Both the position numbers and the translations under genes were made by a program. Below the pieces are notes generated by a model. The model made no database searches, had not been told where the DNA came from, and saw only the letters and a program-made list of their open reading frames with translations. Of a DNA stretch of 55,311 bases, positions 1,827 to 51,273 are shown in pieces. The stretch is from Fibrobacteria bacterium (GTDB lineage Bacteria; Fibrobacterota; Fibrobacteria; UBA11236). The DNA lies in contig JAYTHY010000118.1 in the NCBI GenBank assembly GCA_043732185.1, positions 1 to 55,311 on the forward strand, given 5' to 3'. Numbering within the stretch: the stretch's first letter is position 1; the number at the start of each line of letters is the position of its first letter.

Positions 1827-2876
1827 ATGCTATTAAATTTAGAGTCCTTAAGATCTTTTGCTAGTCCTTGCTATTTGATTGCTGAAATAGGGGTTAATCA
1901 CGGCGGGGATATGGAGCTCGCCAATAAAATGATTCTAGCTGCAAAAGCTTCGGGAGCGGATGCAGTTAAATTTCAGACTTTTACCGCTGAAGCGCTCGTT
2001 TCCAAGGGCACTCCGAAGGTCAGATACCAAGAAAGCACAACTTCCAAATACGAAACTCATTATGAGATGATCCGCAAATTGGAACTGAAGAGGGAGCATC
2101 ACAAACCGTTAATGGAGTACTGTCATAAAGTCGGCGTCGATTTCATTTCCACGCCATATGATTTGGACAGCGCAAGCTTCTTGCATGAACTTGGTGTTGG
2201 AATTTTCAAAACCGCATCAGCAGATATCGTTGATCTACCTCTGCAATCCCTCCTGGCAAAAACAGGTAAAACGGTCATAGTCGCAACGGGGATGGCAACC
2301 ATGGAAGAAATCCGAGAAGTTTCCGATATCTACTCGGCCGCTAAAAACTCGAATCTCGCGCTTCTCCATTGTGTCTCGAACTATCCATGTTCAGACGCTA
2401 GCCTAAACCTTAGAGTCATAACTTCCTTGCAGTCGGCCTTCCCCAATTCCTTGGTTGGATTTTCTGATCACAGCGTGGGGGCCCAAGCAGGGGCTCTCTC
2501 TGTTGCGCTGGGCGCCAAAATTATCGAAAAACATTTCACCCTTGATAAAAACCTCGTTGGGCCCGACCATAAAGCTTCCGCCACCCCGGAAGAATTTTTA
2601 GAGCTGACCCATGCCGTACGGAAGGCCGAAATTTCCCTTGGTTCTCCGGAGAAATCCTGTCAAGAAGAGGAAAAGCAAATGGCGGCAGTTTCCAGAAAAA
2701 GCATTGTGGCTCGCTATCCCATTAAAGCAGGGGAGAGGATTACCTTTGAAAATATCATGATGAAACGGCCCGGGACAGGAATGAGGGCCAATCGTATTCC
2801 ATTTTTAATCGGAAAAAAAGCCAAACGGTCAATGGAAGCGGACCACCTTGTACAAATTCAGGATTTAGACGACTAA
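1827..2876 (+). CDS. neuB: N-acetylneuraminate/nonulosonate synthase with SAF domain
   Basis: IAEIGVNHGGD, GADAVKFQ, LLHCVSNYP, GFSDHS, IIEKHFTLDK, GPDH, KRPGTG. Confidence 0.95.
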   Translation: MLLNLESLRSFASPCYLIAEIGVNHGGDMELANKMILAAKASGADAVKFQTFTAEALVSKGTPKVRYQESTTSKYETHYEMIRKLELKREHHKPLMEYCHKVGVDFISTPYDLDSASFLHELGVGIFKTASADIVDLPLQSLLAKTGKTVIVATGMATMEEIREVSDIYSAAKNSNLALLHCVSNYPCSDASLNLRVITSLQSAFPNSLVGFSDHSVGAQAGALSVALGAKIIEKHFTLDKNLVGPDHKASATPEEFLELTHAVRKAEISLGSPEKSCQEEEKQMAAVSRKSIVARYPIKAGERITFENIMMKRPGTGMRANRIPFLIGKKAKRSMEADHLVQIQDLDD

Positions 2877-2928
2877 TGGGAATTGCTGAACATATTTTTC
2901 CATTATTAACCCGACCTCATTTTATCAA

Positions 2929-3570
2929 ATGACTGAGGATTTAATTTTAATCGGGGGCGGAGGGCATTGCCGGTCATGCATTGATGTCATCCGTGCAGAA
3001 GGCCGTTATAGGATCGTTGGCATAATTGATACACAGGAAAACCTTGGGCAAAAAGTCTCAGGATATGAAGTTATAGGTACTGATGAAAACCTAAAAGTTT
3101 TGGCAAAAAAGGGTGGGCAATTTCTCATAACCGTGGGACAGATTAAGTCACCCAAACGACGGATGGAGATTTATAACCTGATAAAATCCTGCGGAGGGAA
3201 TTTTGCCACGGTTGTATCACCCTTTGCCTATGTATCAAGTTTAGCCAAGATTGGAGAAGGCACAATAATCATGCATCATGCGCTAGTCGTTTCACATGCG
3301 ACTATCGGCAAGAATTGCATAATCAACAGTAAGGCGCTCATTGAGCATGATGCCCAAATCGGGGACGACTGTCACGTCTCCACCGGAGCCATTGTAAATG
3401 GAACAGCGATTCTTACCGGCCAAACTTTTCTTGGTAGTGGATCCATAGTAAATCACCAAGTCACAATTGCCGGCGGATGCATAATCGGCTCAGGTTCCCT
3501 GGTAGTTCGATCCATCCAAGAATCCGGAACCTATATTGGAAATCCTTTGAAGAAATTGAACCCGCTATGA
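2929..3570 (+). CDS. NeuD/PglD-family sugar acetyltransferase (hexapeptide repeats)
   Basis: LIGGGGHCRSCID N-terminus; IEHDAQIG catalytic EH motif; left-handed beta-helix repeats. Confidence 0.9.
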   Translation: MTEDLILIGGGGHCRSCIDVIRAEGRYRIVGIIDTQENLGQKVSGYEVIGTDENLKVLAKKGGQFLITVGQIKSPKRRMEIYNLIKSCGGNFATVVSPFAYVSSLAKIGEGTIIMHHALVVSHATIGKNCIINSKALIEHDAQIGDDCHVSTGAIVNGTAILTGQTFLGSGSIVNHQVTIAGGCIIGSGSLVVRSIQESGTYIGNPLKKLNPL

Positions 3571-4421
3571 TTTTCATTTCCACAGGTGGGTATTACGAAC
3601 GATCGGCCTATGAGAGCGCTCGTGAATTGATCGATAACGGGTTCTTCAACATTGAATTGTCTGGAGGACAATTCTCCGAGTCTCTTCGCCAAGATCTTCT
3701 CAAACTAAAAGGCCATGCCTGCTTTCAAATCCACAATTATTTCCCGCCGCCGAGTGTACCCTTTGTTTTCAATTTGGGCTCTTTGAATATAGAGACGGCT
3801 GAGGCGGCCATGCAGCATGCTCGGACGGCAATTACCTGGGCTGCGGATTTTTCGCAACCCATCTATAGCTTCCATGCGGGGTTTCTAATGGATCCGGCTC
3901 CCAAAGAGCTTGGAAGGCGGATAGGCAAGCGAGAGCTTTTCGACAGGGAGACCAGTCTAGAAAAGTTCATCTCCCGGGTGAATGAGCTGTCTGAATTTTC
4001 TCGCGAATTAGGCGTGGAGCTTTTAGTTGAAAACAACGTGCTTTCGTATTCCAACTATAAGGAGTTCGGCGAGAATCCTCTGCTTATGGTCACGCCGGAT
4101 GAGGCCGTCCGAATTATGGAAAGCACTAAGAGCAATGTAAACATGCTTATAGATGTCGCACACTTGAAAGTTTCAGCTCGCACGCTTGGATTTGACCCGG
4201 TTAGCATGTTCACTAAATGCCAGAAATGGATTCGAGCTTACCACCTAAGCGACAATGACGGACTCTCCGACAGCAATCAAGAAGTGCGAGAGGACTCTTG
4301 GTTTTGGGATCACTTGCAGCGAGACCTTAAGTACTACAGCCTAGAAATTTATAAAACGAACCTTGATCATATGAAGCACCAGCTTGCCTTGACCCAGAAA
4401 AAACTTGGATTGATTGAATAG
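3567..4421 (+). CDS. Xylose-isomerase-like TIM-barrel protein (sugar phosphate isomerase/epimerase family)
   Basis: IHNYFP, SFHAG, LLVENN, LIDVAHL, YHLSDNDG metal-binding motifs; ATG at 3567 overlaps the upstream stop (ATGA). Confidence 0.75.
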   Translation: MIFISTGGYYERSAYESARELIDNGFFNIELSGGQFSESLRQDLLKLKGHACFQIHNYFPPPSVPFVFNLGSLNIETAEAAMQHARTAITWAADFSQPIYSFHAGFLMDPAPKELGRRIGKRELFDRETSLEKFISRVNELSEFSRELGVELLVENNVLSYSNYKEFGENPLLMVTPDEAVRIMESTKSNVNMLIDVAHLKVSARTLGFDPVSMFTKCQKWIRAYHLSDNDGLSDSNQEVREDSWFWDHLQRDLKYYSLEIYKTNLDHMKHQLALTQKKLGLIE

Positions 4422-4428
4422 GATACCG

Positions 4429-5853
4429 ATGCTCGAAAACCTGACTTGTAAAGACAACCAAACGATTATTGATGCTTTAAGAAAGATAGACCTTAACGTT
4501 AAGGGCGCACTGTTTGTTGTTGATGAATCCGACAGGTTTCTGGGAACCCTGACCGACGGCGATATTCGTCGGGCGATCCTTTCTAAAAAAGGGACGGAGA
4601 CACTTTTGTCGGAATTACTGGTGGGAAAAGATTCGGTCTCGTTGCCGATATCCACCCCTGTTCGCGAACTTCTCCAAACCGCGAATAAGATGATCAAAAT
4701 AATCCCTTTACTCGACCAAGATGGGAAAGTTGCTGACTATTTCGAGTATAAAGCTGATTTCCATGCTCCTATTGCGTCTACCAACCTTATTGGCAATGAA
4801 CTTGCCTATGTCATTGAATGCGTTACAACCAATTGGATATCCTCCCAAGGCGAATTCGTTAATCGCTTTGAAAAAGGATTTTCCGAATACATTGGCACGA
4901 CCCAAGGTGTCGCAGTTATGAACGGAACAGTCGCCCTTCACTTGGCTCTCTTGGCACTTGGAATTGGCCCAGGGGATGAGGTCATCGTACCCGACCTGAC
5001 TTTCGCCGCGACCATAAATGCGGTGCTCTATACTGGTGCACGCCCAGTCATCGTTGACGTTGAATTTGAAAGCTGGTGTATAGGTACCAAAGCAATTGAA
5101 CAGGCCATTACCTCCAAAACCAAGGCCATTATTCCCGTTCATTTATATGGTCAACCCTGCGACATGCCGGCCATTATGAAGCTTGCCGACAAGCATGGAA
5201 TCAAAGTGATTGAAGATTGCGCAGAGGCACATGGAGCGGAAATCGGCGGTCAAAAAGTTGGGAGCTTTGGCCATATCAATTGCTACTCCTTTTTTGGAAA
5301 TAAAATCCTGACGACTGGTGAGGGCGGAATGTGCCTGACAGACGATGTTGAGTTGGCGGATAAAATGAGGCAGCTTCGCGATCACGGTATGGATCGAAAG
5401 AAACGGTATTGGCATCAGACGGTCGGTTATAATTATAGGATCACCAACCTACAGGCCGCCATTGGCGTGGGTCAGTTAGAGAGAATCGACGCGATTTTAG
5501 AAAAGCGGACTCAGATTCGCCATTGGTATGAAACAGGCTTAGCGGACGCACCTGAAATAGAGGTTCAAAAAATCATACCTGGGAGAAAATCAGTCACTTG
5601 GCTATATAGTGCCACTCTTAAACACGGAAAAATTTCGAGGGATCTCTTAATCGATAAACTAAAATCGAAAAACGTGGACTTAAGGCCTTTTTTCTACCCT
5701 CTGAGCCAAATGGACATTTATAAGGATTTCGCCAAAAATCCGACGCCCATTTCCAATGAGGTTTCTGCGCAGGGGTTAAGCTTCCCTACAGTTCTTTCAA
5801 TGAACGAAGAGGATTACCTATTCATTTGCGATAAAATCAAAGAATGCCTGTAA
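4429..5853 (+). CDS. CBS-domain + DegT/DnrJ/EryC1/StrS PLP aminotransferase (perosamine-synthase-like)
   Basis: GTLTDGDIRRAIL (CBS); NGTVALHLAL, IIPVHLYG, IEDCAEAHG, SFFGNKILTTGEGG, GYNYR; start may instead be TTG 4414. Confidence 0.9.
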   Translation: MLENLTCKDNQTIIDALRKIDLNVKGALFVVDESDRFLGTLTDGDIRRAILSKKGTETLLSELLVGKDSVSLPISTPVRELLQTANKMIKIIPLLDQDGKVADYFEYKADFHAPIASTNLIGNELAYVIECVTTNWISSQGEFVNRFEKGFSEYIGTTQGVAVMNGTVALHLALLALGIGPGDEVIVPDLTFAATINAVLYTGARPVIVDVEFESWCIGTKAIEQAITSKTKAIIPVHLYGQPCDMPAIMKLADKHGIKVIEDCAEAHGAEIGGQKVGSFGHINCYSFFGNKILTTGEGGMCLTDDVELADKMRQLRDHGMDRKKRYWHQTVGYNYRITNLQAAIGVGQLERIDAILEKRTQIRHWYETGLADAPEIEVQKIIPGRKSVTWLYSATLKHGKISRDLLIDKLKSKNVDLRPFFYPLSQMDIYKDFAKNPTPISNEVSAQGLSFPTVLSMNEEDYLFICDKIKECL

Positions 5854-5933
5854 TCCATTTTAAATGGTAGGGCCATTATTTTTAAGCGCCCTATTGTGGT
5901 TAATACAATGACTTTTTTCAAGGAGATGGGGAT

Positions 5934-6710
5934 ATGAAGCGCTCCAAAACTTCACAGAAGCTAAGCGAGATGCGAGTTCTGTTCATAATCACTGCAAGAG
6001 GCGGTTCAAAGGGTGTGCCCGGAAAGAATATCCGGGAAATCGGAGGAATACCGCTGCTTGCCTATAAAGCCATTTCAGCTAATAAAACCAGATGCGAGAA
6101 GCGGATCATCCTTTCAACGGACTCCCATGAAATCGCTGAGATCGGACGCAAGTGTGGCATTGAAGTTCCATTTATGCGGCCTAAGCATTTGGCTACAAGC
6201 AAAGCGTCATCAATTGATGTCATTAAACACGCCATGGGTTGGGTGGAAAAAAATGACGAGAATCAATATGATGCGGTTTTTCTTCTCGAACCCTCAAGTC
6301 CCTTTGGAACTTGGGAGGATTTCGAACAAGCATTAAACATATTGGCCAAGCCGGGAGTTGACAACGTGGTAGCCGTCAAAGAGGTCCACCCAAATACGAT
6401 TTTTTCGGTTTATTTAGGCCCGGATGGGTCCCTCGCCACCCTAGGGAAACGCCTGGCCAAATTGAAAACCATGCGCAGACAAGACTTCAAACCTGAATAT
6501 ACCCCCAGTGGCGCGCTGTATTGCTCACGATGGGAAGCATTCAAAAAAAGACCGACCTTTTATTCCTCTCGAACTTACACGGTGATCCAAGAAGACGCAT
6601 ATGCCGTTGAAATTGATTCCATGGTTGACCTCGCCTTTACGGAATTCGTGGTTGAAAAGGGCTTAATTGACCTATCCTACTGGAAAGACCTGCCAAGGAA
6701 AAACAAATGA
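5934..6710 (+). CDS. neuA: Acylneuraminate cytidylyltransferase (CMP-nonulosonate synthetase)
   Basis: IITARGGSKGVPGKN, LSTDS, EVPFMRP, LLEPSSP, EIDS..D. Confidence 0.9.
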   Translation: MKRSKTSQKLSEMRVLFIITARGGSKGVPGKNIREIGGIPLLAYKAISANKTRCEKRIILSTDSHEIAEIGRKCGIEVPFMRPKHLATSKASSIDVIKHAMGWVEKNDENQYDAVFLLEPSSPFGTWEDFEQALNILAKPGVDNVVAVKEVHPNTIFSVYLGPDGSLATLGKRLAKLKTMRRQDFKPEYTPSGALYCSRWEAFKKRPTFYSSRTYTVIQEDAYAVEIDSMVDLAFTEFVVEKGLIDLSYWKDLPRKNK

Positions 6711-8020
6711 AAAAGAATTCTGGAATTGAATTGTGGAACAAGGCGAAAACCATCATACCCGGTGGAAACCAATTGCTCTCCAAAAGGAGTGAACGATTTC
6801 TTCCAGACCAGTGGCCATCCTACTATGATCGGGCCAAGGGATGTGAAATCTGGGATCTGGATGGCAATCATTATTACGATTTCGCCCAAATGGGAGTGGG
6901 TGCATGCGTACTAGGATATGCCCACGATTACGTAAACGAAAAAGTGAAACAAGCCATAGATAAAGGTTCCATGGCAACGCTTAATGCACCGGAAGAAGTG
7001 GCATTAGCGGAACGGCTTTTATCCCTTCATCCCTGGGCCTCGAAAGTTCGTTTTTCCCGAACTGGCGGAGAGGCCTGTTCTATTGCGATTCGGATCGCCA
7101 GGGCTGCAACTAAAAAGAGCAAGGTCGCCTTTTGTGGATACCATGGATGGCATGACTGGTATTTGTCCGCCAACCTCTCCGACGGTTCCAATTTAGATGA
7201 CCAATTGCTGCCAGGGCTTAATACCAAGGGCGTACCGCGTGAACTAGCGGGTACCAATCACCCCTTTAAATATAATGATCTTACCCAACTCAAGGCCATA
7301 GCCGCAGAACACGGAAAGGATCTCGCATGTATTATCATGGAGCCGGTCCGGAACTTTGAGCCGGAACCCGCATTCCTCCAGGGTGTGAGGGATATCGCGA
7401 ACCAAACGGGGGCATTGTTGATATTCGATGAAGTAACATCTGGATTTCGCATGAACTTCGGCGGGATCCATTTGAGGTACGGAGTCCAACCTGATCTAGC
7501 CGTATTCGGTAAGGCACTTGGAAATGGTTATCCGATCTCAGCCATCATTGGCCGGAATTCCATGGATGTAGCTCAAGAAAGTTTTATCAGCAGCACTTTT
7601 TGGACTGAACGTATCGGTTTTACGGCTGCGCTTGCGACCTTGGATGTGATGGAAAAGGAAAATGTTTCAGCTAATCTTATCCATTATGGCGAAGCCGTTA
7701 ACGCGGGATGGAATAGAATCGCAGCAAAACATGGCCTCAAAATTCACATTAGTGGAATCACGCCCCTTACCCACATCGCCTTCGACTACCCCAATGCTAA
7801 TGCCATACAAACCTTATACTGTCAGGAAATGCTGAAGCGGGGTTTCATGCTTGGAGCATCGGTTTACGCCACCAATGCATATTCCGACGAAATCATTGCA
7901 AAATTTATCAATGCTTCCGACGCAGTGTTCGGCATGCTTTTGAAGGGTATCGCAAGTGAAACCATTGAAACTCTTTTGGAAGGACCGGTGATGCACTCAG
8001 GATTTAAACGGCTAACCTGA
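6707..8020 (+). CDS. Class III PLP aminotransferase (GSA-aminomutase-like fold)
   Basis: AKGCEIWDLDGN.YYD, FSRTGGEA, GYHGWHDW, LIFDEVTSGFR, FGKALGNGYP. Confidence 0.9.
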   Translation: MKKNSGIELWNKAKTIIPGGNQLLSKRSERFLPDQWPSYYDRAKGCEIWDLDGNHYYDFAQMGVGACVLGYAHDYVNEKVKQAIDKGSMATLNAPEEVALAERLLSLHPWASKVRFSRTGGEACSIAIRIARAATKKSKVAFCGYHGWHDWYLSANLSDGSNLDDQLLPGLNTKGVPRELAGTNHPFKYNDLTQLKAIAAEHGKDLACIIMEPVRNFEPEPAFLQGVRDIANQTGALLIFDEVTSGFRMNFGGIHLRYGVQPDLAVFGKALGNGYPISAIIGRNSMDVAQESFISSTFWTERIGFTAALATLDVMEKENVSANLIHYGEAVNAGWNRIAAKHGLKIHISGITPLTHIAFDYPNANAIQTLYCQEMLKRGFMLGASVYATNAYSDEIIAKFINASDAVFGMLLKGIASETIETLLEGPVMHSGFKRLT

Positions 8021-8067
8021 ATGCCAGCCCAAGTACTTGAGATTGTTCTGGCTAAACGGAGTTTTAA

Positions 8068-8841
8068 ATGTTGCTGAGCGGTAAGGTAGTGGTTGTAACC
8101 GGCGGCGCCGGGCTGATTGGAAAAGAATTCATTAAGGCCATTGCGGAAGAAGGGGCTACAGCGGTAATCGCGGATATCAATCCCAATGCCGCCGAATTGG
8201 CTGCTTCAGAGTTAGCGACCGCTGGCATGACTGGTAAAGTGGACTGGATCGGGATGGATATCACCTCGCTCGAATCTTTGCAAAATTCCATCGCATCCTT
8301 GAAGCAAAAGCATGGCAAGATAGATGCCCTGGTCAACAACGCCTATCCCCGCAACGGCAATTATGGACGGGAATTCTTTAAGGTTGAGTATAAGGATTTT
8401 TGCGAAAATATTGGATTGCATCTTGGCGGGTATTTCTTAGCCAGCCAGCAATTCGCTTCCTTCTTTAAGTCCCAGGGCTTCGGAAACATCGTAAGCATTT
8501 CGTCCATCTATGGAGTCATGGCTCCCAAGTTCGAAATTTACCAGGGGACGCCCATGACTATGCCCGTGGAATATGCTGCTGTAAAGTCGGCATTAATCCA
8601 TTTGACCAAGTATATGGCAAAATATTTGAAAGGAACAGGCATCCGCGTGAATGCGATAAGCCCTGGGGGAATCATCAACGGTCAGCCGGAACCGTTTCTC
8701 AGGAAATATGACGCCCAATGTTTATCCAAGGGCATGCTCGTTCCTTCCGATTTGCGAGGAACCTTACTTTACCTGCTTTCGGATATGTCCCATTTTCTAA
8801 ATGGTCAAAATATTGTGGTCGATGACGGCTTTTCACTATGA
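8068..8841 (+). CDS. ptmA: SDR oxidoreductase, PtmA (flagellin modification protein A)-like
   Basis: TGGAGLIG, DALVNNAYPRN, SSIYG, EYAAVK (YxxxK), RVNAISPGG, GQNIVVDDG; closely recalls PtmA of legionaminic-acid loci. Confidence 0.75.
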   Translation: MLLSGKVVVVTGGAGLIGKEFIKAIAEEGATAVIADINPNAAELAASELATAGMTGKVDWIGMDITSLESLQNSIASLKQKHGKIDALVNNAYPRNGNYGREFFKVEYKDFCENIGLHLGGYFLASQQFASFFKSQGFGNIVSISSIYGVMAPKFEIYQGTPMTMPVEYAAVKSALIHLTKYMAKYLKGTGIRVNAISPGGIINGQPEPFLRKYDAQCLSKGMLVPSDLRGTLLYLLSDMSHFLNGQNIVVDDGFSL

Positions 8842-10031
8842 AGAAACTGGTTCTTCTAGGCTACTTACCGCTAAGTAAGAAGCTCTGGGAAGATTATTTC
8901 ATCGACTATATGATAGAAGGGGGAATTGCCGTTGAATATTGGGAACTTTCCAATGTTATTTTCCCAGAGATTGATTCTTCTCACCATCCCACTGATTCCA
9001 TAATTCGAAAATTAAGAGATACTTCAGATCTTAGCGAAAGACTGAAAGCTGAATCCCGGACGGAAACTCTTTTCCTTACCCAAGTTACTTACGAAGCACG
9101 TGCAGTGCCACTTTTTAGAATGCTCAAGGCCTATTCATGTCAAACCAGTTTCTTCGCACGTGGCAATATACCCATACCTACAGCAAAGGAAATTGCTTCT
9201 ACTCGGGACAATCGGAGTCCATTATTGGCTCGGATGATTCAGGTTCTGCGGAAGGTAATGGATAAGCTTCCCCATCGTTATGCGTTGTTCTGTAAAATAG
9301 TCGGAATCACCAAATGCCATAATCTTGTATTTAGGGCTGGAAATACGGGTATGCAGACGATAGGAGTGGGTGCCAGGTTGGAAAAATCCCGGGCACGTAT
9401 CGTGGACATCAACTTCTTTGACTATGATAAATACATGACGGTTTGCGCTGAAAAGGAAAACCTTGTTGAGGGCGACTACTGTGTATTCCTAGACGAATAC
9501 ACCCCCTTCCATCCTGACTTTCTCCTCCTGGGTATTCCCACCGTTGAACCGTCCAAGTATTACAATTCCATGAACATCTTCTTCAAGGCCCTGGAAGCGA
9601 AGTTCAATACCCGCGTGATTATAGCCGCCCATCCAAAAGCGGATTATAAAATTAACCCGTATGATGGCCGCCAATTATTTGTAATGAAGACCTGTGAATT
9701 AGTCAAGAACGCTCGATTTGTGATTTCTCACTCCAGTACATCCATAAGTTTCGCGGTTCTATTCAACAAGCCGCTTATATTCATATACAATGATGAGATG
9801 CTCCGTTTATATGCCAATACCTATTGCGAATACTCCAAACACTTCGCCAAAACTGTCGGCTCCAAATGCTATAACATAGATGCCGTACCCGTTTCCAGTA
9901 TTGAGATAAGCCCTGTTGATAGAGCGTGCTACGAAGCATACAAATATGATTTTCTCACCTCGAAGGCATCGGAAAATCGCACTTCGAAAGAGGTAGTATT
10001 GGAAACACTCCTTAACCTAAAATTCGACTGA
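8838..10031 (+). CDS. Putative nonulosonate (sialyl-type) transferase
   Basis: AAHP and HSSTS motifs as in bacterial sialyltransferases/Capsule_synth-like GT-B proteins; lies between the CMP-nonulosonate genes and wzx. Confidence 0.5.
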   Translation: MKKLVLLGYLPLSKKLWEDYFIDYMIEGGIAVEYWELSNVIFPEIDSSHHPTDSIIRKLRDTSDLSERLKAESRTETLFLTQVTYEARAVPLFRMLKAYSCQTSFFARGNIPIPTAKEIASTRDNRSPLLARMIQVLRKVMDKLPHRYALFCKIVGITKCHNLVFRAGNTGMQTIGVGARLEKSRARIVDINFFDYDKYMTVCAEKENLVEGDYCVFLDEYTPFHPDFLLLGIPTVEPSKYYNSMNIFFKALEAKFNTRVIIAAHPKADYKINPYDGRQLFVMKTCELVKNARFVISHSSTSISFAVLFNKPLIFIYNDEMLRLYANTYCEYSKHFAKTVGSKCYNIDAVPVSSIEISPVDRACYEAYKYDFLTSKASENRTSKEVVLETLLNLKFD

Positions 10032-10040
10032 CAAGTCGCT

Positions 10041-11624
10041 ATGCAAACCTCTTACACCCTTAATTACATCCAGATTTACCTATGGCAGGGATTGGCCATG
10101 GTTGTAAACATCGGATCAATGGTTATCGTCACTCCCATGATCACGGCCTCGCCCGGAACCTATGGCATCTATTCTTTATGCATCGCCGCAAATATTTTCC
10201 TTCAATACGCGGATATTGGTTTTGTGGGTGCAGCATTCAAATACGCAAGCGAGTCCTATGCAAAAAAGGATATGCCCGAGGAGATTCGAACTATTGGCTT
10301 CGCCAGTTTTATCCTATTGGTTTTCGTGGCATTTTATTCAATTGCCCTTTTTGCTTGTTCACGGAATCCATCGCTTTTGATCAAAAACCTGCATGATCCG
10401 AATGAATTTCGGATTGCCTCGCAACTCTTATTGATCCTGGCTATTTTCTCCCCAATAACGGTTCTGCAGCGCTTCCTCCAGTTGGTTTTCGGCGTTCGTG
10501 TCGAAGACTATATCTTCCAGCGGATGTCCTTGGTCACCAGCATTGCCAAGATTCTTTCCGTCTTTTACTTCTTCAGCCCAGGTAAGTACGACATTGTGGG
10601 ATACTTTCTTTTTTCCCAACTGGTAAGTCTCGCGCTTCTAGTCACTTCCGTCGTAATCGCCAGATTCCGCTATGCTTACGATTTCCCTTTGTTTTTTCGC
10701 TCCATCCGCTTTTCGAAAAAGATGTTTAGCCGCATGAAGGCACTGGCTTTCGGCTCTCTGTATACAACCTTGGTTTGGGTTGCATTCTATGAGCTTGACC
10801 TTTTTGCCATAGGGAAGATGATAGGCCCTAAAATGGCCGGCATATACGCCGTTGGCTTTACCCTTTTGGGCTTCTATCGCGGAATTTTTGGAACTATCTA
10901 CTCCCCCTTCTCGGCCCGATTTAACCATTTCCGTGGACAGGAACGGGAAGGGGGGCTTAAAGAATTTTTTTTAAGAGTTATTATCATCACCATCCCCTTA
11001 GTAACCTTTCCGTTATTGGGGCTTGCAGCACTTCTAAAGCCATTTATCCTATCCTGGGTTGGGCCTGAATATACCACTTCCATTCCTATAACTTTACTCC
11101 TCTTACTGTCCTTTCTTTATAGCTTCATTAGCTATCCTGCAGGAATCCTGATGACAGCCCAAGTACGGGTCAAAGAACTTAACGTCATTTTCACTCTTGT
11201 TGGATTGGTAACTTGGACTGGCATATTCTTGACCTATTCCCATCTCCATGCCCTTGCTTTCGCCTTGTTTAAATTTGTTGGATTCAGCATCTTCGGGATT
11301 TTTTATGCAAGGGTGACTGTGCATTACTTGGGATTGGGATGGCTGGGATTTGCAAAAAAGGTGTTGGCACCACTACTCGTTCCGGTATTAGTCGAGGTTG
11401 CCCTTCTCCATTGGATTGGCGGAATGCTTCCTACGGAAAAAGGCAAGCTCCACCTTTTATTAACCGTTTCTTTTGGGGGCATTGGATCGGCAATTGCCGT
11501 GGCACTTTATTATCTCTTTTCAAAACCCTTTCAAGAATATATTTCCATGGTTTTTAAAAAGTTCGCGCCGCTTTCCAGAAACAAAAGTGTTGAGATTCAG
11601 CCCGATCAAACGGGATTCTCGTGA
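10041..11624 (+). CDS. wzx: Polysaccharide flippase
   Basis: ~12-14 hydrophobic segments; YGIY...D.G motif; MOP-family layout. Confidence 0.85.
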   Translation: MQTSYTLNYIQIYLWQGLAMVVNIGSMVIVTPMITASPGTYGIYSLCIAANIFLQYADIGFVGAAFKYASESYAKKDMPEEIRTIGFASFILLVFVAFYSIALFACSRNPSLLIKNLHDPNEFRIASQLLLILAIFSPITVLQRFLQLVFGVRVEDYIFQRMSLVTSIAKILSVFYFFSPGKYDIVGYFLFSQLVSLALLVTSVVIARFRYAYDFPLFFRSIRFSKKMFSRMKALAFGSLYTTLVWVAFYELDLFAIGKMIGPKMAGIYAVGFTLLGFYRGIFGTIYSPFSARFNHFRGQEREGGLKEFFLRVIIITIPLVTFPLLGLAALLKPFILSWVGPEYTTSIPITLLLLLSFLYSFISYPAGILMTAQVRVKELNVIFTLVGLVTWTGIFLTYSHLHALAFALFKFVGFSIFGIFYARVTVHYLGLGWLGFAKKVLAPLLVPVLVEVALLHWIGGMLPTEKGKLHLLLTVSFGGIGSAIAVALYYLFSKPFQEYISMVFKKFAPLSRNKSVEIQPDQTGFS

Positions 11625-12934
11625 ACGCAGAAAAGGAAAGTATTTCTGCACGAAGCACTCCTCCACCAAAGAGGCGCATCTTGTATTATACAGATTGCTA
11701 CATATTTGGCGGCTGTGAAAATGTCATCCTGAATCTGTTCCTGAACCGGGAAATCTCATCCGTCTTTGAATCTATATTTTCCTACCGCACCCATAAGGTT
11801 TATCGCGATGTTCTGCATTCCAGAGTTCCAAAGGGCATCCAAACCCATCCCCTTACTATCCTTAGCAATGAAAGTCTTTGGCACAAGATTGAAGCCTCAA
11901 GGGTATCAAATCTCCGGAAAACTCTTTGGAAGCTCCCATTCGCCTTGGCCAATAAATCGGGATTTTACGCCTTTTTCAACCTGATGCGGCTTTTTCTCTG
12001 GTTCCGAAAAATTCGTCCTGACATTCTTCACATCAATAACGGCGGCTATCCGGGTGCTGCAAGCTGCCGCTTGGCCGTTGTAAGTGCAAAACTGGCAAGG
12101 GTACCCAAAATCATATTTCATGTTCATAACCAAGCGACGAAACCGGACAATAAATTCGACGGGGTCTTGGACCGCTTCATTGGAAAGTCGGTCGATTACT
12201 TCGTTTCCGCATCACTCAAGGCAACGAAGACACTAACTGAAAACCGCCCATTTAGCAATGAAAAAGTGATTCAGGTTTACAACTTCGTTGCTGAAGATTT
12301 GAGTATCCGACCCAGGAAGGAAATCCGGGAGGAATTCGGCATTCCGGATGGAGCATTGCTAATCGTTGAGGTTGCATTTCTTACCGAGAGAAAAGGCCAA
12401 CGCCAACTCCTTCAAGCATTAGTCTCCATCAAAAAAATCAACCCCGACCTTTTCTCCAGAATCCGTATCATCTTCGTAGGTGAAGGAGAAGATCGGTCTA
12501 AAATCGAGGACTTTATCCGATCCAACCATTTGGATGAGAAGGTCTCCCTTACTGGGTTCCGGAATGACCACTCAGATTTCATTAATGCTGCTGAGATTTT
12601 TGTCCTTCCTTCAACCAAGAATGAAGATATGCCATTGGTCATTCTCGATGCCATGCGACTCGGAAAGCCTATTGTGGCTTCTGCCGTCGCCGGAATTGCC
12701 GAAGAAATCAGGCATGGCCAGGAAGGCATATTGATAGCACCGGGCGACACGAGCGAACTCGCAGGTGCACTTGTACAGTTGGGCCTGAGCATAGACCTTA
12801 GGGAACGCTATGGCATCCTCGCTAAAAACCGGTACAAGGAAGTATTTTCCAAACGGATTGCCATGAAACGATTCTTGGATATTTATCGTGGCTTAGCTCC
12901 TTCAATCGCAGGTAAGGAATTGCATGCCCAATAA
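11621..12934 (+). CDS. GT4 glycosyltransferase
   Basis: FGGCE, RKGQ, FVLPS..NEDMPLVILDAM..GKPIVAS. Confidence 0.9.
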   Translation: MNAEKESISARSTPPPKRRILYYTDCYIFGGCENVILNLFLNREISSVFESIFSYRTHKVYRDVLHSRVPKGIQTHPLTILSNESLWHKIEASRVSNLRKTLWKLPFALANKSGFYAFFNLMRLFLWFRKIRPDILHINNGGYPGAASCRLAVVSAKLARVPKIIFHVHNQATKPDNKFDGVLDRFIGKSVDYFVSASLKATKTLTENRPFSNEKVIQVYNFVAEDLSIRPRKEIREEFGIPDGALLIVEVAFLTERKGQRQLLQALVSIKKINPDLFSRIRIIFVGEGEDRSKIEDFIRSNHLDEKVSLTGFRNDHSDFINAAEIFVLPSTKNEDMPLVILDAMRLGKPIVASAVAGIAEEIRHGQEGILIAPGDTSELAGALVQLGLSIDLRERYGILAKNRYKEVFSKRIAMKRFLDIYRGLAPSIAGKELHAQ

Positions 12935-13862
12935 CCCGAAGCTTCTTATAATCGGCGGATTTGGATTTCTTGGTTCAAACTTGCTAGATCGTTTTCTTTC
13001 CTCGAATAAATATGAAATCATTGTTTTTGAATTCAACAACGTTGCGCCAAAACAACCGGCCCATTTCAATAGGGTCAAAGTCTATTATGGAGACTTTAAC
13101 AACCCTAAGGATCTGGAGCAAATATTTCTCGAACATAAAATTGAAATTGTTTTACACCTCATCACAACTACGGTGCCGGCGACATCGAACGCCAACATCC
13201 CCTACGATATCCAGTCTAATCTAGTTGATACCATTCATCTGCTAGAAATGATGCGGCAGTATAATGTAGGAAAAATCGTCTTCCTTTCTTCCGGAGGAAC
13301 CATCTACGGCGTGCCGGTTAAGGCCCCGACAAAGGAAACTGATCCGACTGACCCAATTTGCTCATATGGAATTACAAAACTTGCTATTGAAAAATACCTT
13401 CAACTATTCCATCATTTGTACGGCCTTCATTACTTGATTTTGCGCCCATCAAATCCGTTTGGGCCCTATCATACTTCAACCAAGCAGGGGTTGATAAACG
13501 TCATGCTAAGGAAGATCATCGCCAAAGAGCCAATCACCATTTGGGGGGATGGAAACATTGTACGTGATTACCTTTACGTGGGTGATTTTTCGGAATCGGT
13601 TTTCCAATTGATCGAAAGCGGGGTTTCCGGCGAAATCGTAAATGTGGGCAGTGGTTTTGGGCATTCAGTAAAAGATATTCTGGCCATCATGGGTAACCAC
13701 TTTTCTGGCCTCGACGTAATTTATCTACCCTCTAGAGGCTTTGACATCCAAGAGCTTGTTTTGGATTCGCAAAAAATGAATCGACTTTGTCAAATCCACT
13801 CTACAGGATTGGAAGAAGGCATTCTGAAGACTTACGCCTGGATGAAGAAGCAAATGTCATAG
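12924..13862 (+). CDS. NAD-dependent epimerase/dehydratase
   Basis: GGFGFLG, SSGGTIYG, YGITK, RPSNPFGP, RDYLYVGD. Confidence 0.9.
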   Translation: MPNNPKLLIIGGFGFLGSNLLDRFLSSNKYEIIVFEFNNVAPKQPAHFNRVKVYYGDFNNPKDLEQIFLEHKIEIVLHLITTTVPATSNANIPYDIQSNLVDTIHLLEMMRQYNVGKIVFLSSGGTIYGVPVKAPTKETDPTDPICSYGITKLAIEKYLQLFHHLYGLHYLILRPSNPFGPYHTSTKQGLINVMLRKIIAKEPITIWGDGNIVRDYLYVGDFSESVFQLIESGVSGEIVNVGSGFGHSVKDILAIMGNHFSGLDVIYLPSRGFDIQELVLDSQKMNRLCQIHSTGLEEGILKTYAWMKKQMS

Positions 13863-14128
13863 GAATCGAAATTTATAACTTTCTTGGGTGCCCTTCAGGC
13901 GCGCTTTAAATGTATTAGGATGCAAAATTTAATTGGCCAATACAGCGCACTGTATGGCACTTTTGGTTATTTATAATTGACACCTGGAAGACGAATTATT
14001 AAGCCGAGCCGAAAGTCCAACTTGAAACATCTGGATTACCGAGAGCTCCTTTGTGGTGAACATATTCTATTTTTCCAAAGGGAATTGGCCGGAAGGATCC
14101 AACTTGCGGCGGATAGTATTGAGGAGCT

Positions 14129-14911
14129 ATGCAGGCACCAATAGATAAATTTCTTTTTTCAAAAAACCTTATAAACTCCTCCGTCGAGGACAAGGTATCC
14201 TTTATTGAACGGGCATGTAGCGGCAAATCTGTTTTGGATATGGGCTGCGTCTGCCACAACGCTGAGTTCGCCGTCAGCGATCCAAATTGGTTGCACAAAA
14301 AAATAAAAGCCGTAGCAAAGGATGTCATGGGTCTGGATTATTTGCCTCAGGAAGTTGCGAAGCTGCGTGACCTCGGTTATGATATCATATATGGTGACGC
14401 GTCCAAACCAATTGACCTAGATAGGAAATTTGACGTTATTGTTGCCGGAGATCTGATTGAGCATTTACATAATTTCGAGGGATTTTTTGAGAACTGCAAA
14501 CGGCTCCTAAATAAGGGCGGAAAACTACTTGTCACAACTCCTAATCCATTTTTTGCTGACGAGTTTCACTATGTCGCTTTTCGCAATACCTTTTTGATTA
14601 ATCCCGAACATACTTGCTGGATTGATCCAATGGCGATGGCGCATTTAGTCGGAAGGTTTGGTTTCAGGATTGAAGCTTTGCATTTTCTCTCGGGAAGTTG
14701 GAAGCTGAAGAATTTGATTTTTGAAAGCCCGAAAGTTTACTTTGATATACTAAACGGAAAATGGATAAACGATACCTCATCGCAAAAGCAGTTCCGTCGA
14801 TTCGCAGGCGCTATATTTGGCGGGATTTATACAATTTACCGCATCCTTACCCTTCAAAACTCAAAGCTGGTACGGTATAGCGATTATATTGCGGTTTTGA
14901 TGGTCGATTAA
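14129..14911 (+). CDS. Class I SAM-dependent methyltransferase
   Basis: VLDMGC, FDVIVAGDLIEHL, GGKLLVTTPN. Confidence 0.85.
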   Translation: MQAPIDKFLFSKNLINSSVEDKVSFIERACSGKSVLDMGCVCHNAEFAVSDPNWLHKKIKAVAKDVMGLDYLPQEVAKLRDLGYDIIYGDASKPIDLDRKFDVIVAGDLIEHLHNFEGFFENCKRLLNKGGKLLVTTPNPFFADEFHYVAFRNTFLINPEHTCWIDPMAMAHLVGRFGFRIEALHFLSGSWKLKNLIFESPKVYFDILNGKWINDTSSQKQFRRFAGAIFGGIYTIYRILTLQNSKLVRYSDYIAVLMVD

Positions 14912-15249
14912 AATAATTTCGGTTGGATGTTTAAAGGCTATATAGCTGCATGCATTCCGTGATCCATAATTCAGAACAAAACGTGGGGTTGGGCCGTTAA
15001 TCTCGATAAGGTGAGTAATGAATATTTCCTGACTTTCAGCTAGGTTGATGCGTAAATCGCATTTTCCTATCCTTTCTACAGGAAGGTCAATGGAGAGCGC
15101 AAGGCGTTTCTTCTAATAAAAGCGAGCCGATGGGGACAGAGGCCCAAAAGTGGGTTCAAGATTTTGACTCTCGAAACGACTTTACAACTTTCTGATTAAT
15201 ATTTAATCCAAGGTACTCAATATTTTCCCGAAACAGAGCGAATTTGGAT

Positions 15250-16155
15250 ATGACCGCTTTAGTATCCGTCATCGTGCCGACATTCAATCGCGCAACGGTG
15301 CTTTCAAATACCCTTCAATCCATTCTTGAACAAAGCTACAGTAATCTCGAAATTATTGTTGTGGATGACGGCTCCAAGGATGACACTCGCCAAGTAGTTG
15401 AAAGTTTCAAGGACAACCGCATTGTCTACCATTGCATCGCAAATTCAGGAAGGCCGTCGGTCCCACGAAATGTTGGCCTTGAGTTTTCCACTGGAGATTT
15501 TGTCGCATTCTGTGATGATGATGACACATGGCTGCCAGAAAAGGTTGCTAAACAATTGGCCGCATTTTCCATCGCCAAGGATATAGTTTTAGTCGCCACA
15601 AACGCTTACAACTTTCCTGCCAAAGGCGGGAACTTTTTTTACGATTTCGAACGTCTTTTAGGCGGCAATTTCCTCGTTAACTCTTCTGTGATGGTGACTC
15701 GAGCCGCCTTGGATTCAGCCGGAAAATTCGACGAGGACATGCGCCTCAAAGCCGTGGAAGACTACGAATTTTGGCTTAGGATCTTGTATCGAAGTCGAGG
15801 CCGTGGCTATAAGCTCCGTGAACGCCTTACTGTTTATAACATTGCGACAGTTGGTATTGGCAGAGATTATACTCCATTTGGCATTAGAATTCTTTACCGA
15901 AAACATCTGTGTATTCTTCGAAAATTCGAAAGGGAAGCCTATCGACCTGTTTCCATCCAGAAAGCCAAAAATAGGCATAGGAAAATTATTCTTTCGAGCT
16001 ATTTCAAGGTTAACTTCAAACGGACTCCTGAATATCTCCTTCAGGTTTGGGCTTCCCAATGTTTTTTCAAAACGAAAGTTAAACTCAGTTTGGGATTTCT
16101 TATGGCTGGCAGGCTTCCATTTGAATCGATGAAGTCCGAAAAGGGGTGCGAGTGA
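15250..16155 (+). CDS. GT2 glycosyltransferase
   Basis: VSVIVPTFNR, IIVVDDGSKD, FCDDDD, EDYEFWLR. Confidence 0.9.
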   Translation: MTALVSVIVPTFNRATVLSNTLQSILEQSYSNLEIIVVDDGSKDDTRQVVESFKDNRIVYHCIANSGRPSVPRNVGLEFSTGDFVAFCDDDDTWLPEKVAKQLAAFSIAKDIVLVATNAYNFPAKGGNFFYDFERLLGGNFLVNSSVMVTRAALDSAGKFDEDMRLKAVEDYEFWLRILYRSRGRGYKLRERLTVYNIATVGIGRDYTPFGIRILYRKHLCILRKFEREAYRPVSIQKAKNRHRKIILSSYFKVNFKRTPEYLLQVWASQCFFKTKVKLSLGFLMAGRLPFESMKSEKGCE

Positions 16156-37528: not shown

Positions 37529-37659
37529 TTGTACTCCCATTTTTGCTAACAACAAGACCTCAGCAAAATCAAATTGCTGAGAATTGAAGCCGAAATATGG
37601 CCATGCGAAAAAATTAACGCGCCTTCTAAATGTCGTTAAAATCTTAGAAAAGGGCTAAT

Positions 37660-40125: not shown

Positions 40126-41166
40126 TTATTTCGAATTTAAAGACTCCAGATCGGCTTTAATCATGATCTCAACCAACTGGTCAAATTTCACTTTTGGTGT
40201 CCACCCCAGTTTTTCTCTGGCCTTGGTTGGATTACCAAGCAAAAGCTCCACCTCGGCAGGTCGGTAGAATTTAGGATCGACTTCAACAATCACTTTACCG
40301 CTTTTTCGATCACGACCGATTTCACTATCGCCACGCCCTTCCCAACCAATTTCATACCCTGCGAAGGGTGCGGCTTTTTCGATGAATTCGCGTACCGTAT
40401 GGGTTTCTCCGGTAGCGGCCACATAATCGTCCGCTTCGTTCTGTTGCAGCATAAGCCACATCATTTCCACAAAGTCCTTGGCATATCCCCAGTCACGCTT
40501 GGCGTCCATATTACCGATGCGGAGCGTTGACTGTAAGCCAGCCTTTATGCGCGCTAGGGATAACGTTACCTTGCGGGTTACGAAATTCTCCCCACGGCGT
40601 GGGGATTCATGATTGAAGAGAATGCCATTGCTGGCATGCATGCCGTAAGATTCTCTATAATTCTTAACTATCCAGTAACCGTATAGCTTAGCTACCCCAT
40701 ATGGGGACCTTGGATAGAATGGTGTGTTTTCGGTTTGTGGAATTTCCTGGACCTTCCCGTAAAGCTCGGAAGTAGAAGCTTGATAAAACCTAGCGTCCAA
40801 TTTATTGCTGCGTATGGCCTCAAGTAAACGCAGTACTCCTGTGGCATCCACATCGGCTGTAAATTCCGGCGAATCAAAGGAAACTTTGACATGACTTTGG
40901 GCAGCTAAATTGTAGACCTCTGTTGGTCGGGTTTCGGCAATGATTCGGTTTAAGCTGCTGGAATCCCCCATGTCACCATAATGCAGGTCATAGATTTTAC
41001 CCTGTTTCCGGACATGTTCACGAACCTCTTCAATGCGGGTACGATTAAATAATGAGGTCCTTCGGATGATGCCATGAACATCGTACCCTTTTTCCAGTAA
41101 AAACTCGGCAAGATATGAGCCATCTTGCCCCGTGATACCGGTTATCAATGCAGTTTTCTTAGCCAT
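40126..41166 (-). CDS. gmd: GDP-mannose 4,6-dehydratase
   Basis: [50 protein letters not shown]. Confidence 0.97.
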
Positions 41167-49329: not shown

Positions 49330-49376
49330 GCTTCAAAATTAGAATAGAAATCTATCTTGTCCGACTAGAGGGACGC

Positions 49377-51266: not shown

Positions 51267-51273
51267 TCCAGTC

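Follow-up and report, generated by a model that had tools for sequence, protein, structure and literature searches.

A stretch of 55,311 nucleotides (nt) from a Fibrobacteria bacterium (GTDB lineage UBA11236; GenBank assembly GCA_043732185.1, contig JAYTHY010000118.1, positions 1 to 55,311), hereafter called the window, carries a gene cluster centred on a NeuB-family synthase of nonulosonic acids (NulOs). The original prediction, made from this DNA, had placed a non-canonical NulO pathway in a run of eight genes at 1827-10031, and all eight were recovered there on the forward strand and confirmed by hidden Markov model (HMM) searches against Pfam and NCBIfam, the scores of which are given below in bits alongside the curated cut-offs. 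The run is the first part of a series of 11 forward-strand genes (1827-13862) that are separated by gaps of -11 to +80 nt, with six overlapping junctions, and that constitute one tightly packed operon. The rest of the window is an exopolysaccharide (EPS) or O-antigen locus with further glycosyltransferases, Wzz, an initiating transferase and gmd, the gene for GDP-mannose 4,6-dehydratase. The genes of the operon, together with gmd, are as follows.

1827-2876, forward strand: NeuB-family nonulosonate synthase, which condenses phosphoenolpyruvate (PEP) with a hexose (PF03102, 284.7)
2929-3570, forward strand: NeuD/PglD-type left-handed beta-helix (LbH) N-acetyltransferase, PerB-like (TIGR03570, 195.7, cut-off 160.8; PglD_N and Hexapep domains)
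3567-4421, forward strand: xylose-isomerase-like TIM barrel (PF01261, 57.3, cut-off 31.1)
4414-5853, forward strand: CBS domain plus DegT-family pyridoxal phosphate (PLP) aminotransferase, GDP-perosamine-synthase-like (PF01041, 419.7; CBS, 42.9)
5934-6710, forward strand: CMP-nonulosonate synthetase, that is, cytidylyltransferase (PF02348, 64; PseF, 145.5, below the cut-off of 205.7)
6707-8020, forward strand: class III (glutamate-1-semialdehyde-aminomutase-like) aminotransferase (PF00202, 158.5; NF004856, 268.7, below the cut-off of 486)
8068-8841, forward strand: PtmA-like classical short-chain dehydrogenase/reductase (SDR) (NF006619, 355.9, cut-off 255; FlagModPtmA, 264.6, below the cut-off of 350)
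8838-10031, forward strand: 397-residue protein of GT-B fold (no Pfam or NCBIfam match)
10041-11624, forward strand: membrane protein with 10 transmembrane-like segments by hydropathy, a candidate flippase or polymerase (no family match)
11621-12934, forward strand: GT4 glycosyltransferase (PF00534, 106.3)
12924-13862, forward strand: extended SDR of the epimerase/dehydratase family, the last gene of the operon (PF01370, 169.5)
40126-41166, reverse strand: GDP-mannose 4,6-dehydratase, gmd (PF16363, 503.3; TIGR01472, 546.8, cut-off 415, match 40141-41157), the sole copy in the genome

The TIM barrel most likely begins at 3567 rather than at 3477, the first position of a longer open reading frame (ORF). 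On the NeuB/LegI model TIGR03569, the NeuB of the window scores 385.3 against a cut-off of 399.65, compared with 454-477 for canonical NeuB/LegI examples, and on the PseI model it scores 276 (cut-off 340). The CBS-DegT enzyme reaches 349.5 on the LegC model TIGR04181 (cut-off 420), compared with 534.7 and 525.1 for the LegCs of two canonical legionaminic acid (Leg) clusters, L022 and L023, and 297 on PseC (cut-off 423). At its stop the cytidylyltransferase gene shares 4 nt with the beginning of the gene for the class III aminotransferase, and the PtmA-like SDR begins 47 nt downstream of the latter gene. The extended SDR that closes the operon scores 135.4 on GalE and 134.2 on dTDP-glucose dehydratase, both below the cut-offs.

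The original prediction had noted that NeuC/LegG, PseG and LegB/PseB were missing from the window and had suggested that they be sought in the remaining genome, which consists of 139 contigs and is 100% complete by marker genes. Their absence proved to be genome-wide, none of the models reaching its curated cut-off. The best match to the NeuC/LegG model (TIGR03568) scored 91.8 (cut-off 235.9) and is a non-hydrolysing WecB (TIGR00236, 334.9, cut-off 210) in a PEP-CTERM EPS locus on another contig; the best match to LegB (TIGR04180) scored 158.2 (cut-off 475) and is a TviC/WbpP-like 4-epimerase; the best match to PseB (TIGR03589) scored 57.7 (cut-off 407.75), and PseG (TIGR03590) gave no match. 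A tblastn search of the genome with canonical NeuC, LegB, PseB and PseG from other loci returned weak SDR or WecB matches, and none for PseG; no LegB-, PseB- or PglF-like dehydratase was found in the genome. The presence of the canonical genes elsewhere in the genome was rejected on these profile and tblastn searches, and, within the limits of a marker-complete assembly in 139 contigs, their absence is not an assembly gap. The contrary notion, that nothing unusual is present and that canonical neuC, legB or pse genes lie in unassembled gaps so that the product is ordinary Leg, pseudaminic acid (Pse) or Neu5Ac, would draw on the fragmentation of the assembly and on an SDR-DegT gene pair at the edge of one contig. 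It is extremely improbable in view of the marker-gene completeness, of the NeuC-less architecture seen in all 37 independent metagenome loci and three other genomes described below, and of the position of the window's NeuB in a clade of its own kind.

Two further sites in the same genome were noted. A second non-canonical NeuB cluster, also without NeuC and PseG, occupies positions 2626-16365 of locus L020 on contig C52 (reverse strand). It comprises genes for a cytidylyltransferase, a Gfo/Idh/MocA oxidoreductase, a PseC-like DegT enzyme, a 402-residue SDR, a WecD-like acetyltransferase and NeuB, followed by a formyltransferase, a polysaccharide deacetylase, HisH, HisF/WbuZ and a WbuX amidotransferase, and it provides none of the missing canonical functions. 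Its deacetylase-formyltransferase pair resembles a cluster of Ca. Kuenenia that is proposed, in excerpts of the SugarBase preprint, for free-amine and formyl nonulosonates. At the very start of contig C94 (325-2423, locus L004), a dTDP-glucose-dehydratase-like SDR (158.7 bits) and a PseC-like DegT enzyme (267.7 bits) form another amino-deoxy-sugar pair, the neighbours of which are cut off by the contig edge.

The TIM barrel was listed in the original prediction but was given no role there, though its gene defines this cluster variant and is always present, and no other core gene is a candidate for detaching the sugar from the nucleotide. Its family comprises 2687 detectable proteins, most of the listed members being 49-56% identical to that of the window, and the members with a named source belong to Leptospira, Vreelandella, Methylococcaceae and Pseudohongiella. 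A TIM relative is encoded in at least 504 stretches of metagenome DNA, and the core of NeuB, acetyltransferase, TIM barrel, DegT aminotransferase and CMP-synthetase likewise recurs in at least 504. Metagenome contigs encoding a TIM relative were examined at 37 loci of at least 7 kb (TIM loci), the ORFs of which were clustered, and 80 loci chosen via the class III aminotransferase served as controls. The TIM gene is present in all 37 by construction, and many of these contigs are truncated, so that the gene counts are lower bounds. NeuB lies beside the TIM gene in 35 of the loci, and DegT was found in 29, the acetyltransferase in 29 and the cytidylyltransferase in 24. Less constant companions are the PtmA-like SDR (17 loci), an ABC exporter (16), some extended SDR in a loosely defined cluster (15), a UDP-sugar dehydrogenase (11) and a Gfo/Idh/MocA oxidoreductase (10).

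The canonical enzymes were missing from every one of these loci. In tblastn searches (E <= 1e-5, at least 50% coverage), three NeuC queries, PseG, PglF and WecB found no match in any of the 37 TIM loci, nor did LegB or PseB at 35% identity or more; in the 80 control loci, the same queries detected NeuC in 12, PseG in 23 and PseB in 39. An Epimerase_2 gene was likewise lacking in the five TIM loci with full Pfam annotation. Among 400 sampled Gammaproteobacteria genomes, three carry the TIM family, and neither NeuC nor LegB exceeds its cut-off in any of the three; PseB does so in one, G472, in which a Pse block adjoins the module. An apparent TIM-DegT fusion in G472, a 789-residue open frame, was rejected upon finding a TGA stop between the genes. 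The conservation test suggested with the original prediction returned a core module that is conserved and widespread and that occurs without the canonical enzymes in every homologous locus examined. Together with a dehydratase, the core amounts to six steps, the same number as in the Leg and Pse pathways, with the TIM barrel in the slot of the hydrolase. Neither 60 relatives nor 193 further genomes of the window's phylum contain the TIM family, which makes horizontal acquisition of the operon most likely.

A NeuB phylogeny, also suggested at the outset, placed the synthase of the window in a clade specific to such loci. In a FastTree analysis of 107 synthases, from which a filter of more than 250 model columns left out the canonical Leg synthases of L022, L023 and L030, the window's NeuB falls into a 37-row clade (Shimodaira-Hasegawa-like support 99), all members of which come from TIM-barrel loci. 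Elsewhere in the tree, a further TIM-associated group (25) is placed along with two synthases associated with NeuC and one whose locus has no marker.

The TIM barrel was modelled by AlphaFold2 with high confidence (pLDDT 95.1) as alternating strand and helix elements. Foldseek neighbours of the model are TTHB071, MJ1311, ketose 3-epimerases, UlaE and endonuclease IV, with template modelling (TM) scores of 0.59-0.76 and 11-18% identity, and a sequence search of solved structures returned a best E value of 0.00054. The family alignment contains 58 invariant columns, including H56, H103, E155, D196, H199, H226, D235 and E260. In a profile alignment with E. coli endonuclease IV, which is weak (hhalign probability 37%), the TIM stretches FNLAS, FHAG, IENN, DVAH and YHLSD are paired with INL(A/G), (I/F)HPG, IENT, DTCH and MHLND, respectively; five ligand-bearing motifs of endonuclease IV thereby align with invariant TIM residues, and the rest lie outside the alignment. 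The aligned stretches contain metal ligands of endonuclease IV (Nfo), which has a nine-residue trinuclear site, and the histidine of the third metal appears to be replaced in the TIM family by an invariant asparagine. Endonuclease IV is a metal-dependent phosphodiesterase. The TIM barrel thus has its fold in common with endonuclease IV and the ketose 3-epimerases and, by the same weak alignment, the FH(A/P)G, IEN, DxxH and HLxD motifs with Nfo; unlike Nfo, it has no DNA context, and it is probably a member of neither family. Every other core gene has a textbook equivalent and every step but the removal of the nucleotide has a gene; we therefore propose that the TIM barrel may act as a GDP-N-acetylperosamine hydrolase.

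This assignment has points against it, as the closest structures are not only endonuclease IV but also ketose 3-epimerases, and no nucleotide-sugar hydrolase is known to have this fold. The TIM barrel could instead be a sugar epimerase or isomerase that fixes the stereochemistry of a keto-sugar intermediate, for example at C3 or C5 next to a 4-keto group, with an unlinked housekeeping hydrolase or a phosphatase removing the nucleotide; a variant on sugar phosphates similar to Kdn-9-phosphate is included here. Such a role would suit the structural neighbours D-tagatose/D-psicose 3-epimerases, UlaE and Art22 isomerase (TM scores 0.6-0.7), the best profile matches, which are the tagatose-epimerase-like MJ1311 and D-tagatose 3-epimerases, and the conserved spacing of E155, D196, H226 and E260, which resembles the E-D-H-E metal site of ketose 3-epimerases. 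It would, however, mean that a module conserved in hundreds of loci has no gene for the obligatory removal of the nucleotide, and the additional invariant residues H56, H103 and H199 fit the pattern of endonuclease IV. The substrates of Per/LegC-type DegT enzymes are nucleotide sugars, which also argues against it, and the epimerase role is accordingly regarded as quite improbable.

The probable source of the hexose emerges from the DegT enzyme and the acetyltransferase, which were compared by bit score in sequence searches against solved structures. The best solved relatives of the window's CBS-DegT are the GDP-perosamine synthetases 3DR7 and 3BN1 (342), followed by 7B0M (303) and by others at 223 or less. 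For DegT enzymes from two further TIM loci, which represent one NeuB clade each, perosamine synthetase also came out on top (275 vs 216 and 323 vs 272), so that it is the clear best solved relative of all three TIM-locus DegTs tested. In a canonical LegC taken as a control from a complete Leg cluster, perosamine synthetase (245) was tied with 7B0M (246). The best solved relative of the window's acetyltransferase is the perosamine N-acetyltransferase PerB (4EA7, 86.2), ahead of PglB (81.2) and VioB (80.2); the homologue from the gammaproteobacterium G584 gave 100 for PerB against 78, which makes PerB the top match of both TIM-locus acetyltransferases compared. The NeuD of a Leg cluster, in contrast, gave VioB 108, PglB 103 and PerB 75. 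By sequence, the DegT enzyme and the acetyltransferase of TIM loci are nearer to Per and PerB than the canonical Leg enzymes are.

The genomic context of other TIM loci points in the same direction. In G584, an operon on the reverse strand (locus L188, 6475-15201) comprises wzx, an LbH acetyltransferase gene, gmd, neuB, the acetyltransferase, TIM-barrel and DegT genes, a cytidylyltransferase gene and manC. It contains gmd and manC and no GlcNAc-activating genes, its DegT protein (363 residues) has no CBS domain, and it represents the cleanest natural minimal set of the proposed route. The gmd of the window is 58% identical to the G584 gmd that directly precedes neuB. The 170-residue ORF upstream of that gmd, once considered a Nudix-type GDP-sugar hydrolase, is the LbH acetyltransferase. 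In total, manC or gmd occurs within 10 kb in seven of the 37 TIM loci (L107, L111, L128, L131, L166, L174 and L180), compared with three of the 80 control loci. The gmd genes near the class III aminotransferase in L030 and L045 were rejected as a clue to a GDP-sugar substrate, since these are canonical Leg clusters in which gmd is paired with fcl. Taken together, the sequence comparisons indicate that GDP-mannose is probably the precursor of the hexose.

Several observations weigh against a perosamine-type precursor. The margin in favour of PerB in the window's acetyltransferase is only 5 bits; the best NCBIfam match of the DegT enzyme is the LegC family, and no perosamine-synthase model occurs among the 24 families listed. 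LegC also uses a GDP-sugar, so that the affinity to Per may in part reflect shared nucleotide binding. Neither gmd nor manC lies within 10 kb in 30 of the 37 TIM loci, and PglF-like long dehydratases encoded elsewhere in the gammaproteobacterial genomes G440 and G584 (185 and 183 bits, respectively, on the PseB model) could feed a GlcNAc-based route. The gmd of the window is situated 30 kb from the operon on the opposite strand, and a true GDP-fucose synthase is encoded in the genome (fcl, contig C63, 499.9 bits), so that this gmd may serve fucose only and is weak evidence by itself. The idea in the original prediction that gmd, the perosamine-synthase-like DegT enzyme and the acetyltransferase supply the hexose to NeuB has gained comparative support from the Per and PerB affinities and from the G584 operon.

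These observations could also be read in terms of a Leg-type route from GDP- or UDP-GlcNAc, which is considered rather unlikely. In this case, an unrecognised extended SDR, for example that at 12924-13862, would act as the 4,6-dehydratase, the DegT enzyme would be LegC, the acetyltransferase would be LegH, and the TIM barrel would be a non-orthologous substitute for the 2-epimerising hydrolase LegG/NeuC. An ordinary 5,7-diacetamido-tetradeoxy-nonulosonate, or a stereoisomer of it, would result, on which the SDR and class III aminotransferase would then act as tailoring enzymes. Beyond the LegC match of the DegT enzyme and the PglF-like dehydratases, this route is consistent with the greater proximity of the window's NeuB to NeuB/LegI (385) than to PseI (276), with the extended SDR that closes the operon and the loosely defined extended-SDR cluster of 15 TIM loci, and with the grouping of the second TIM-associated NeuB clade with two NeuC-associated synthases. 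It is opposed by the greater similarity of the DegT enzyme and the acetyltransferase to Per and PerB than is found in canonical Leg enzymes, by the lack of any LegB-, PseB- or PglF-like dehydratase in the window's own genome, and by the G584 operon with gmd and manC but no GlcNAc-activating genes. In addition, the extended SDR of the operon scores just 84.2 on the LegB model (cut-off 475), and a PtmE-type nucleotidyltransferase forming GDP-GlcNAc was matched by tblastn in one of the 37 TIM loci (at less than 35% identity), compared with 15 of the 80 controls.

Based on these comparisons, the chances seem roughly even that a perosamine-type route encoded by the operon leads to a CMP-activated nonulosonic acid, which would then be transferred into the exopolysaccharide or O-antigen of the window. 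All substrates and chemical steps of this route are inferred from sequence. In the first step, Gmd (40126-41166) may convert GDP-mannose to GDP-4-keto-6-deoxymannose, which the perosamine-synthase-like CBS-DegT enzyme could transaminate to GDP-perosamine. The PerB-like acetyltransferase would then form GDP-N-acetylperosamine, and the TIM-barrel metalloenzyme may strip off GDP to release free 4-acetamido-4,6-dideoxy-D-mannose. Condensation of this hexose with PEP by NeuB would yield 7-acetamido-3,7,9-trideoxy-non-2-ulosonic acid, that is, legionaminic acid with a hydroxy group in place of nitrogen at C5. Next, the PtmA-like SDR may oxidise a remaining hydroxy group and the class III aminotransferase may aminate it. 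Oxidation at C8 of 9-deoxy acids gives a methyl ketone, a typical substrate of class III aminotransferases, and C8 is therefore the most likely site of amination, with C5 or C4 as possible alternatives. Finally, the cytidylyltransferase could form the CMP-sugar, and the GT-B protein may transfer it. Since perosamine is already manno-configured, this route would need no 2-epimerising hydrolase (NeuC/LegG), plain removal of GDP being enough, and because the housekeeping Gmd would replace LegB/PseB, these enzymes would be dispensable as well. A more tentative suggestion, of slightly less than even probability, is that the TIM family represents a new class of nucleotide-sugar hydrolase that opens a branch of nonulosonates derived from GDP-mannose and perosamine, the acid being aminated in this operon to an undescribed 7-acetamido-8(or 5)-amino nonulosonate. 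With GDP-mannose as the probable start and a metal-binding barrel in place of the textbook enzymes, the product is probably an undescribed sugar.

The original prediction had counted the class III aminotransferase among the features foreign to the standard pathways. The enzyme is no mark of the TIM route: it very commonly accompanies Leg and Pse clusters that are otherwise canonical and, at 40% identity or more, occurs in none of the 37 TIM loci. A search with the aminotransferase gave at least 8000 candidates at E <= 0.001. Among the 120 matches listed, all but the window's own are 63-69% identical, and the five with a named source belong to five phyla; 597 genome stretches carrying the gene span Bacteria and Archaea. 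It is located inside canonical Leg clusters (L022 and L023) and Pse clusters (L066 and L046). Of the class III aminotransferase loci, 58 extend for 3 kb or more to either side of the gene; 35 of these have a cytidylyltransferase no further than 300 nt from the aminotransferase, 50 have one anywhere in the locus, and 45 contain NeuB. Cytidylyltransferase and aminotransferase are fused in P0059 (CTP_transf_3) and in L046. The oxidoreductase partner varies among SDR, Gfo/Idh/MocA and aldo-keto reductase families, and in the Leg-type locus L022 a homologue of the PtmA-like SDR adjoins the aminotransferase. Class III aminotransferase and dehydrogenase thus make up a separate, common tailoring cassette that is not specific to the TIM route. 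The window shows the cassette arrangement, with the aminotransferase beside the cytidylyltransferase and the SDR nearby inside a NeuB cluster. Neither the 37 TIM loci nor the 80 aminotransferase loci examined contain a TIM front end joined to this cassette, as the window does. The closest TIM locus, L113 (5071-7807; NeuB and DegT each 60% identical), encodes a cytidylyltransferase, a second DegT enzyme (403 residues) and an SDR, and the second DegT and the SDR at the position of the window's class III aminotransferase and SDR fit a modular add-on for oxidation and amination.

It is plausible that the SDR and the class III aminotransferase act in succession, oxidising and then transaminating the remaining hydroxy group of the nonulosonate or its CMP derivative. 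Against such a partnership, Campylobacter PtmA has reportedly been assigned a different role, in the supply of GlcN-6-P, and since 17 of the 37 TIM loci have the PtmA-like SDR without any class III aminotransferase, the SDR need not act with the aminotransferase. Both enzymes may even not act on the nine-carbon sugar, instead making an N-acyl substituent (amino- or hydroxy-acyl) or an amino-sugar precursor, as proposed for Campylobacter PtmA/PtmF. This possibility, judged unlikely, would agree with the PtmA family membership of the SDR, with its occurrence alone in those 17 loci and with the many N-acyl groups borne by NulOs, 3-hydroxybutyryl among them, that are mentioned in excerpts of PMC3210612. 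It accords poorly with an aminotransferase that adjoins or is fused to a cytidylyltransferase in 35 of 58 loci and that stays 50-69% identical while its oxidoreductase partner switches family, and no acyl carrier protein, ligase or second acyltransferase is encoded within 1827-10031. In favour of the preferred succession of oxidation and transamination on the sugar itself, excerpts of PMC3210612 mention an 8-amino nonulosonate from Flexibacter maritimus. In the consulted sections of PMC7874193 and PMC3694923, a class III aminotransferase gene is drawn in Aeromonas group I flagellin glycosylation islands and is entered in the gene table of the Legionella pneumophila Sg6/Sg12 O-antigen locus, respectively, in both cases with no function. 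In these sections, the same aminotransferase lies beside pseF or a cytidylyltransferase with a reductase nearby. Cassette loci of this type have canonical PseB/PseC(/PseG) or LegB/LegC/NeuC front ends, in contrast to the TIM-type front end of the window. The TIM-type cluster offers a concrete, testable substrate hypothesis for this very common cassette.

Amination of a finished ulosonic acid before CMP activation, as proposed here, is known from Kdo8N biosynthesis in Shewanella, in which KdnB, an iron alcohol dehydrogenase, oxidises C8 and KdnA, a DegT-type enzyme, transaminates it. The window differs in having a class III aminotransferase and an SDR for these roles and in a substrate of nine rather than eight carbons. 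KdnA (5K8B) is among the PDB matches of the window's DegT enzyme, and Kdo8N is cited in the excerpts of PMC3210612. The front end of the proposed route can be compared with two established pathways. The CMP-legionaminic acid pathway of C. jejuni (LegB, LegC, LegH, LegG, LegI and LegF), which is GDP-linked, has the same logic and the same step count: a 4,6-dehydratase, a PLP-dependent 4-aminotransferase on a GDP-sugar, an LbH N-acetyltransferase, nucleotide removal, PEP condensation by a NeuB-family enzyme and CMP activation. The likeness extends to the matches of the window's DegT enzyme and NeuB to the LegC and NeuB/LegI models, both below the cut-offs. Unlike in C. jejuni, LegB and LegG/NeuC are lacking in the window's genome and the TIM barrel occupies the hydrolase slot; the likely precursor is GDP-mannose instead of GDP-GlcNAc, and C5 of the product would bear a hydroxy rather than an acetamido group. 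The GDP-N-acetylperosamine pathway (ManC, Gmd, Per and PerB; Caulobacter enzymes 3DR7/3BN1 and 4EA7) is matched by the window's Gmd above its cut-off, and the best solved relatives of the DegT enzyme and the acetyltransferase are Per and, by a small margin, PerB. The known GDP-N-acetylperosamine is a glycosyl donor for O-antigen, whereas in the window it would be stripped of its nucleotide and extended to nine carbons by NeuB.

The last enzyme of the proposed route is the 397-residue protein (8838-10031), the AlphaFold2 model of which (pLDDT 93.8) resembles GT-B proteins in Foldseek at TM scores of only 0.38-0.49, the top matches being UDP-GlcNAc 2-epimerases and GT1 transferases; no sialyltransferase is among the listed matches. 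It has 87 homologues, is absent from all 37 TIM metagenome loci and shows invariant FLD (mostly followed by E) and AAHP stretches, which are reminiscent of the D/E-D/E-G and HP motifs of bacterial sialyltransferases. The possibility that it is a hidden NeuC or PseG was rejected on the grounds of this absence, of the small number of homologues and of the DE/HP-type motifs. It is thus not suited to be the general hydrolase of the module and is read as a probable nonulosonate transferase. Metagenome fragments P0121 and P0241 encode proteins 93% identical to the TIM protein and the 397-residue protein of the window.

A literature search found no paper linking perosamine with both neuB and nonulosonic, the single listed paper on perosamine lacking neuB. 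The terms "sugar phosphate isomerase" and "xylose isomerase-like" did not appear among the best-ranked papers examined, which were part of a larger result set, and "glutamate-1-semialdehyde" occurred together with these sugar terms only in PMC3694923 among the matches listed, supplements being outside the search. The consulted parts of a Tenacibaculum O-antigen paper and of a NulO-synthase phylogeny paper held nothing on these genes. The TIM-type cluster is therefore not described in the literature searched; the class III aminotransferase accessory was already known. Surface glycans of bacteria are capped with nonulosonic acids, which influence recognition by phages, hosts and antibodies, and the diversity of these acids is usually read from genomes via NeuC, LegB or PseB. 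A common type of NeuB cluster without these markers means that an entire branch is overlooked or wrongly labelled in marker-based surveys. If the perosamine route is true, it would add a new sugar (a mono-amino 9-deoxy nonulosonate), a TIM-barrel metalloenzyme as a new means of releasing a sugar from GDP, and a short six-gene path from GDP-mannose to a CMP-activated sialic acid analogue that would be useful for glyco-engineering. If, on the more tentative reading, the TIM family is a new class of hydrolase, analogues of legionaminic acid with a 5-hydroxy group would be widespread in marine and freshwater bacteria, yet new to chemistry.

In the TIM-type metagenome locus L111 (4524-7521), an extended SDR, an HldE-like kinase/adenylyltransferase and a GmhA-like SIS isomerase are encoded directly upstream of neuB; hldE/gmhA-type heptose genes beside the module were noticed in this one representative locus that was annotated. 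For Magnetospirillum, excerpts of the SugarBase preprint describe CMP-activated ulosonic acids with more than nine carbons, and it is pure speculation that the heptose genes of L111 hint at a ten-carbon acid.

Further features of the window lie outside the operon. Just downstream of it, a 536-residue protein encoded on the reverse strand (21874-23484) contains a SASA domain (sialic-acid-specific acetylesterase, PF03629) and could remove O-acetyl groups from the nonulosonate. Between the operon and gmd, large beta-propeller proteins with BNR/Asp-box and Kelch repeats are encoded on the reverse strand (25442-26941, 27083-30145 and 35240-37555); BNR repeats are typical of sialidases. Lastly, the genes for a HAD hydrolase, a 678-residue DUF4954 protein and a 614-residue Glyco_trans_1_2 protein (48451-53082) adjoin that of a TviC/WbpP-like epimerase (47426-48454), with which they form a second sugar module.

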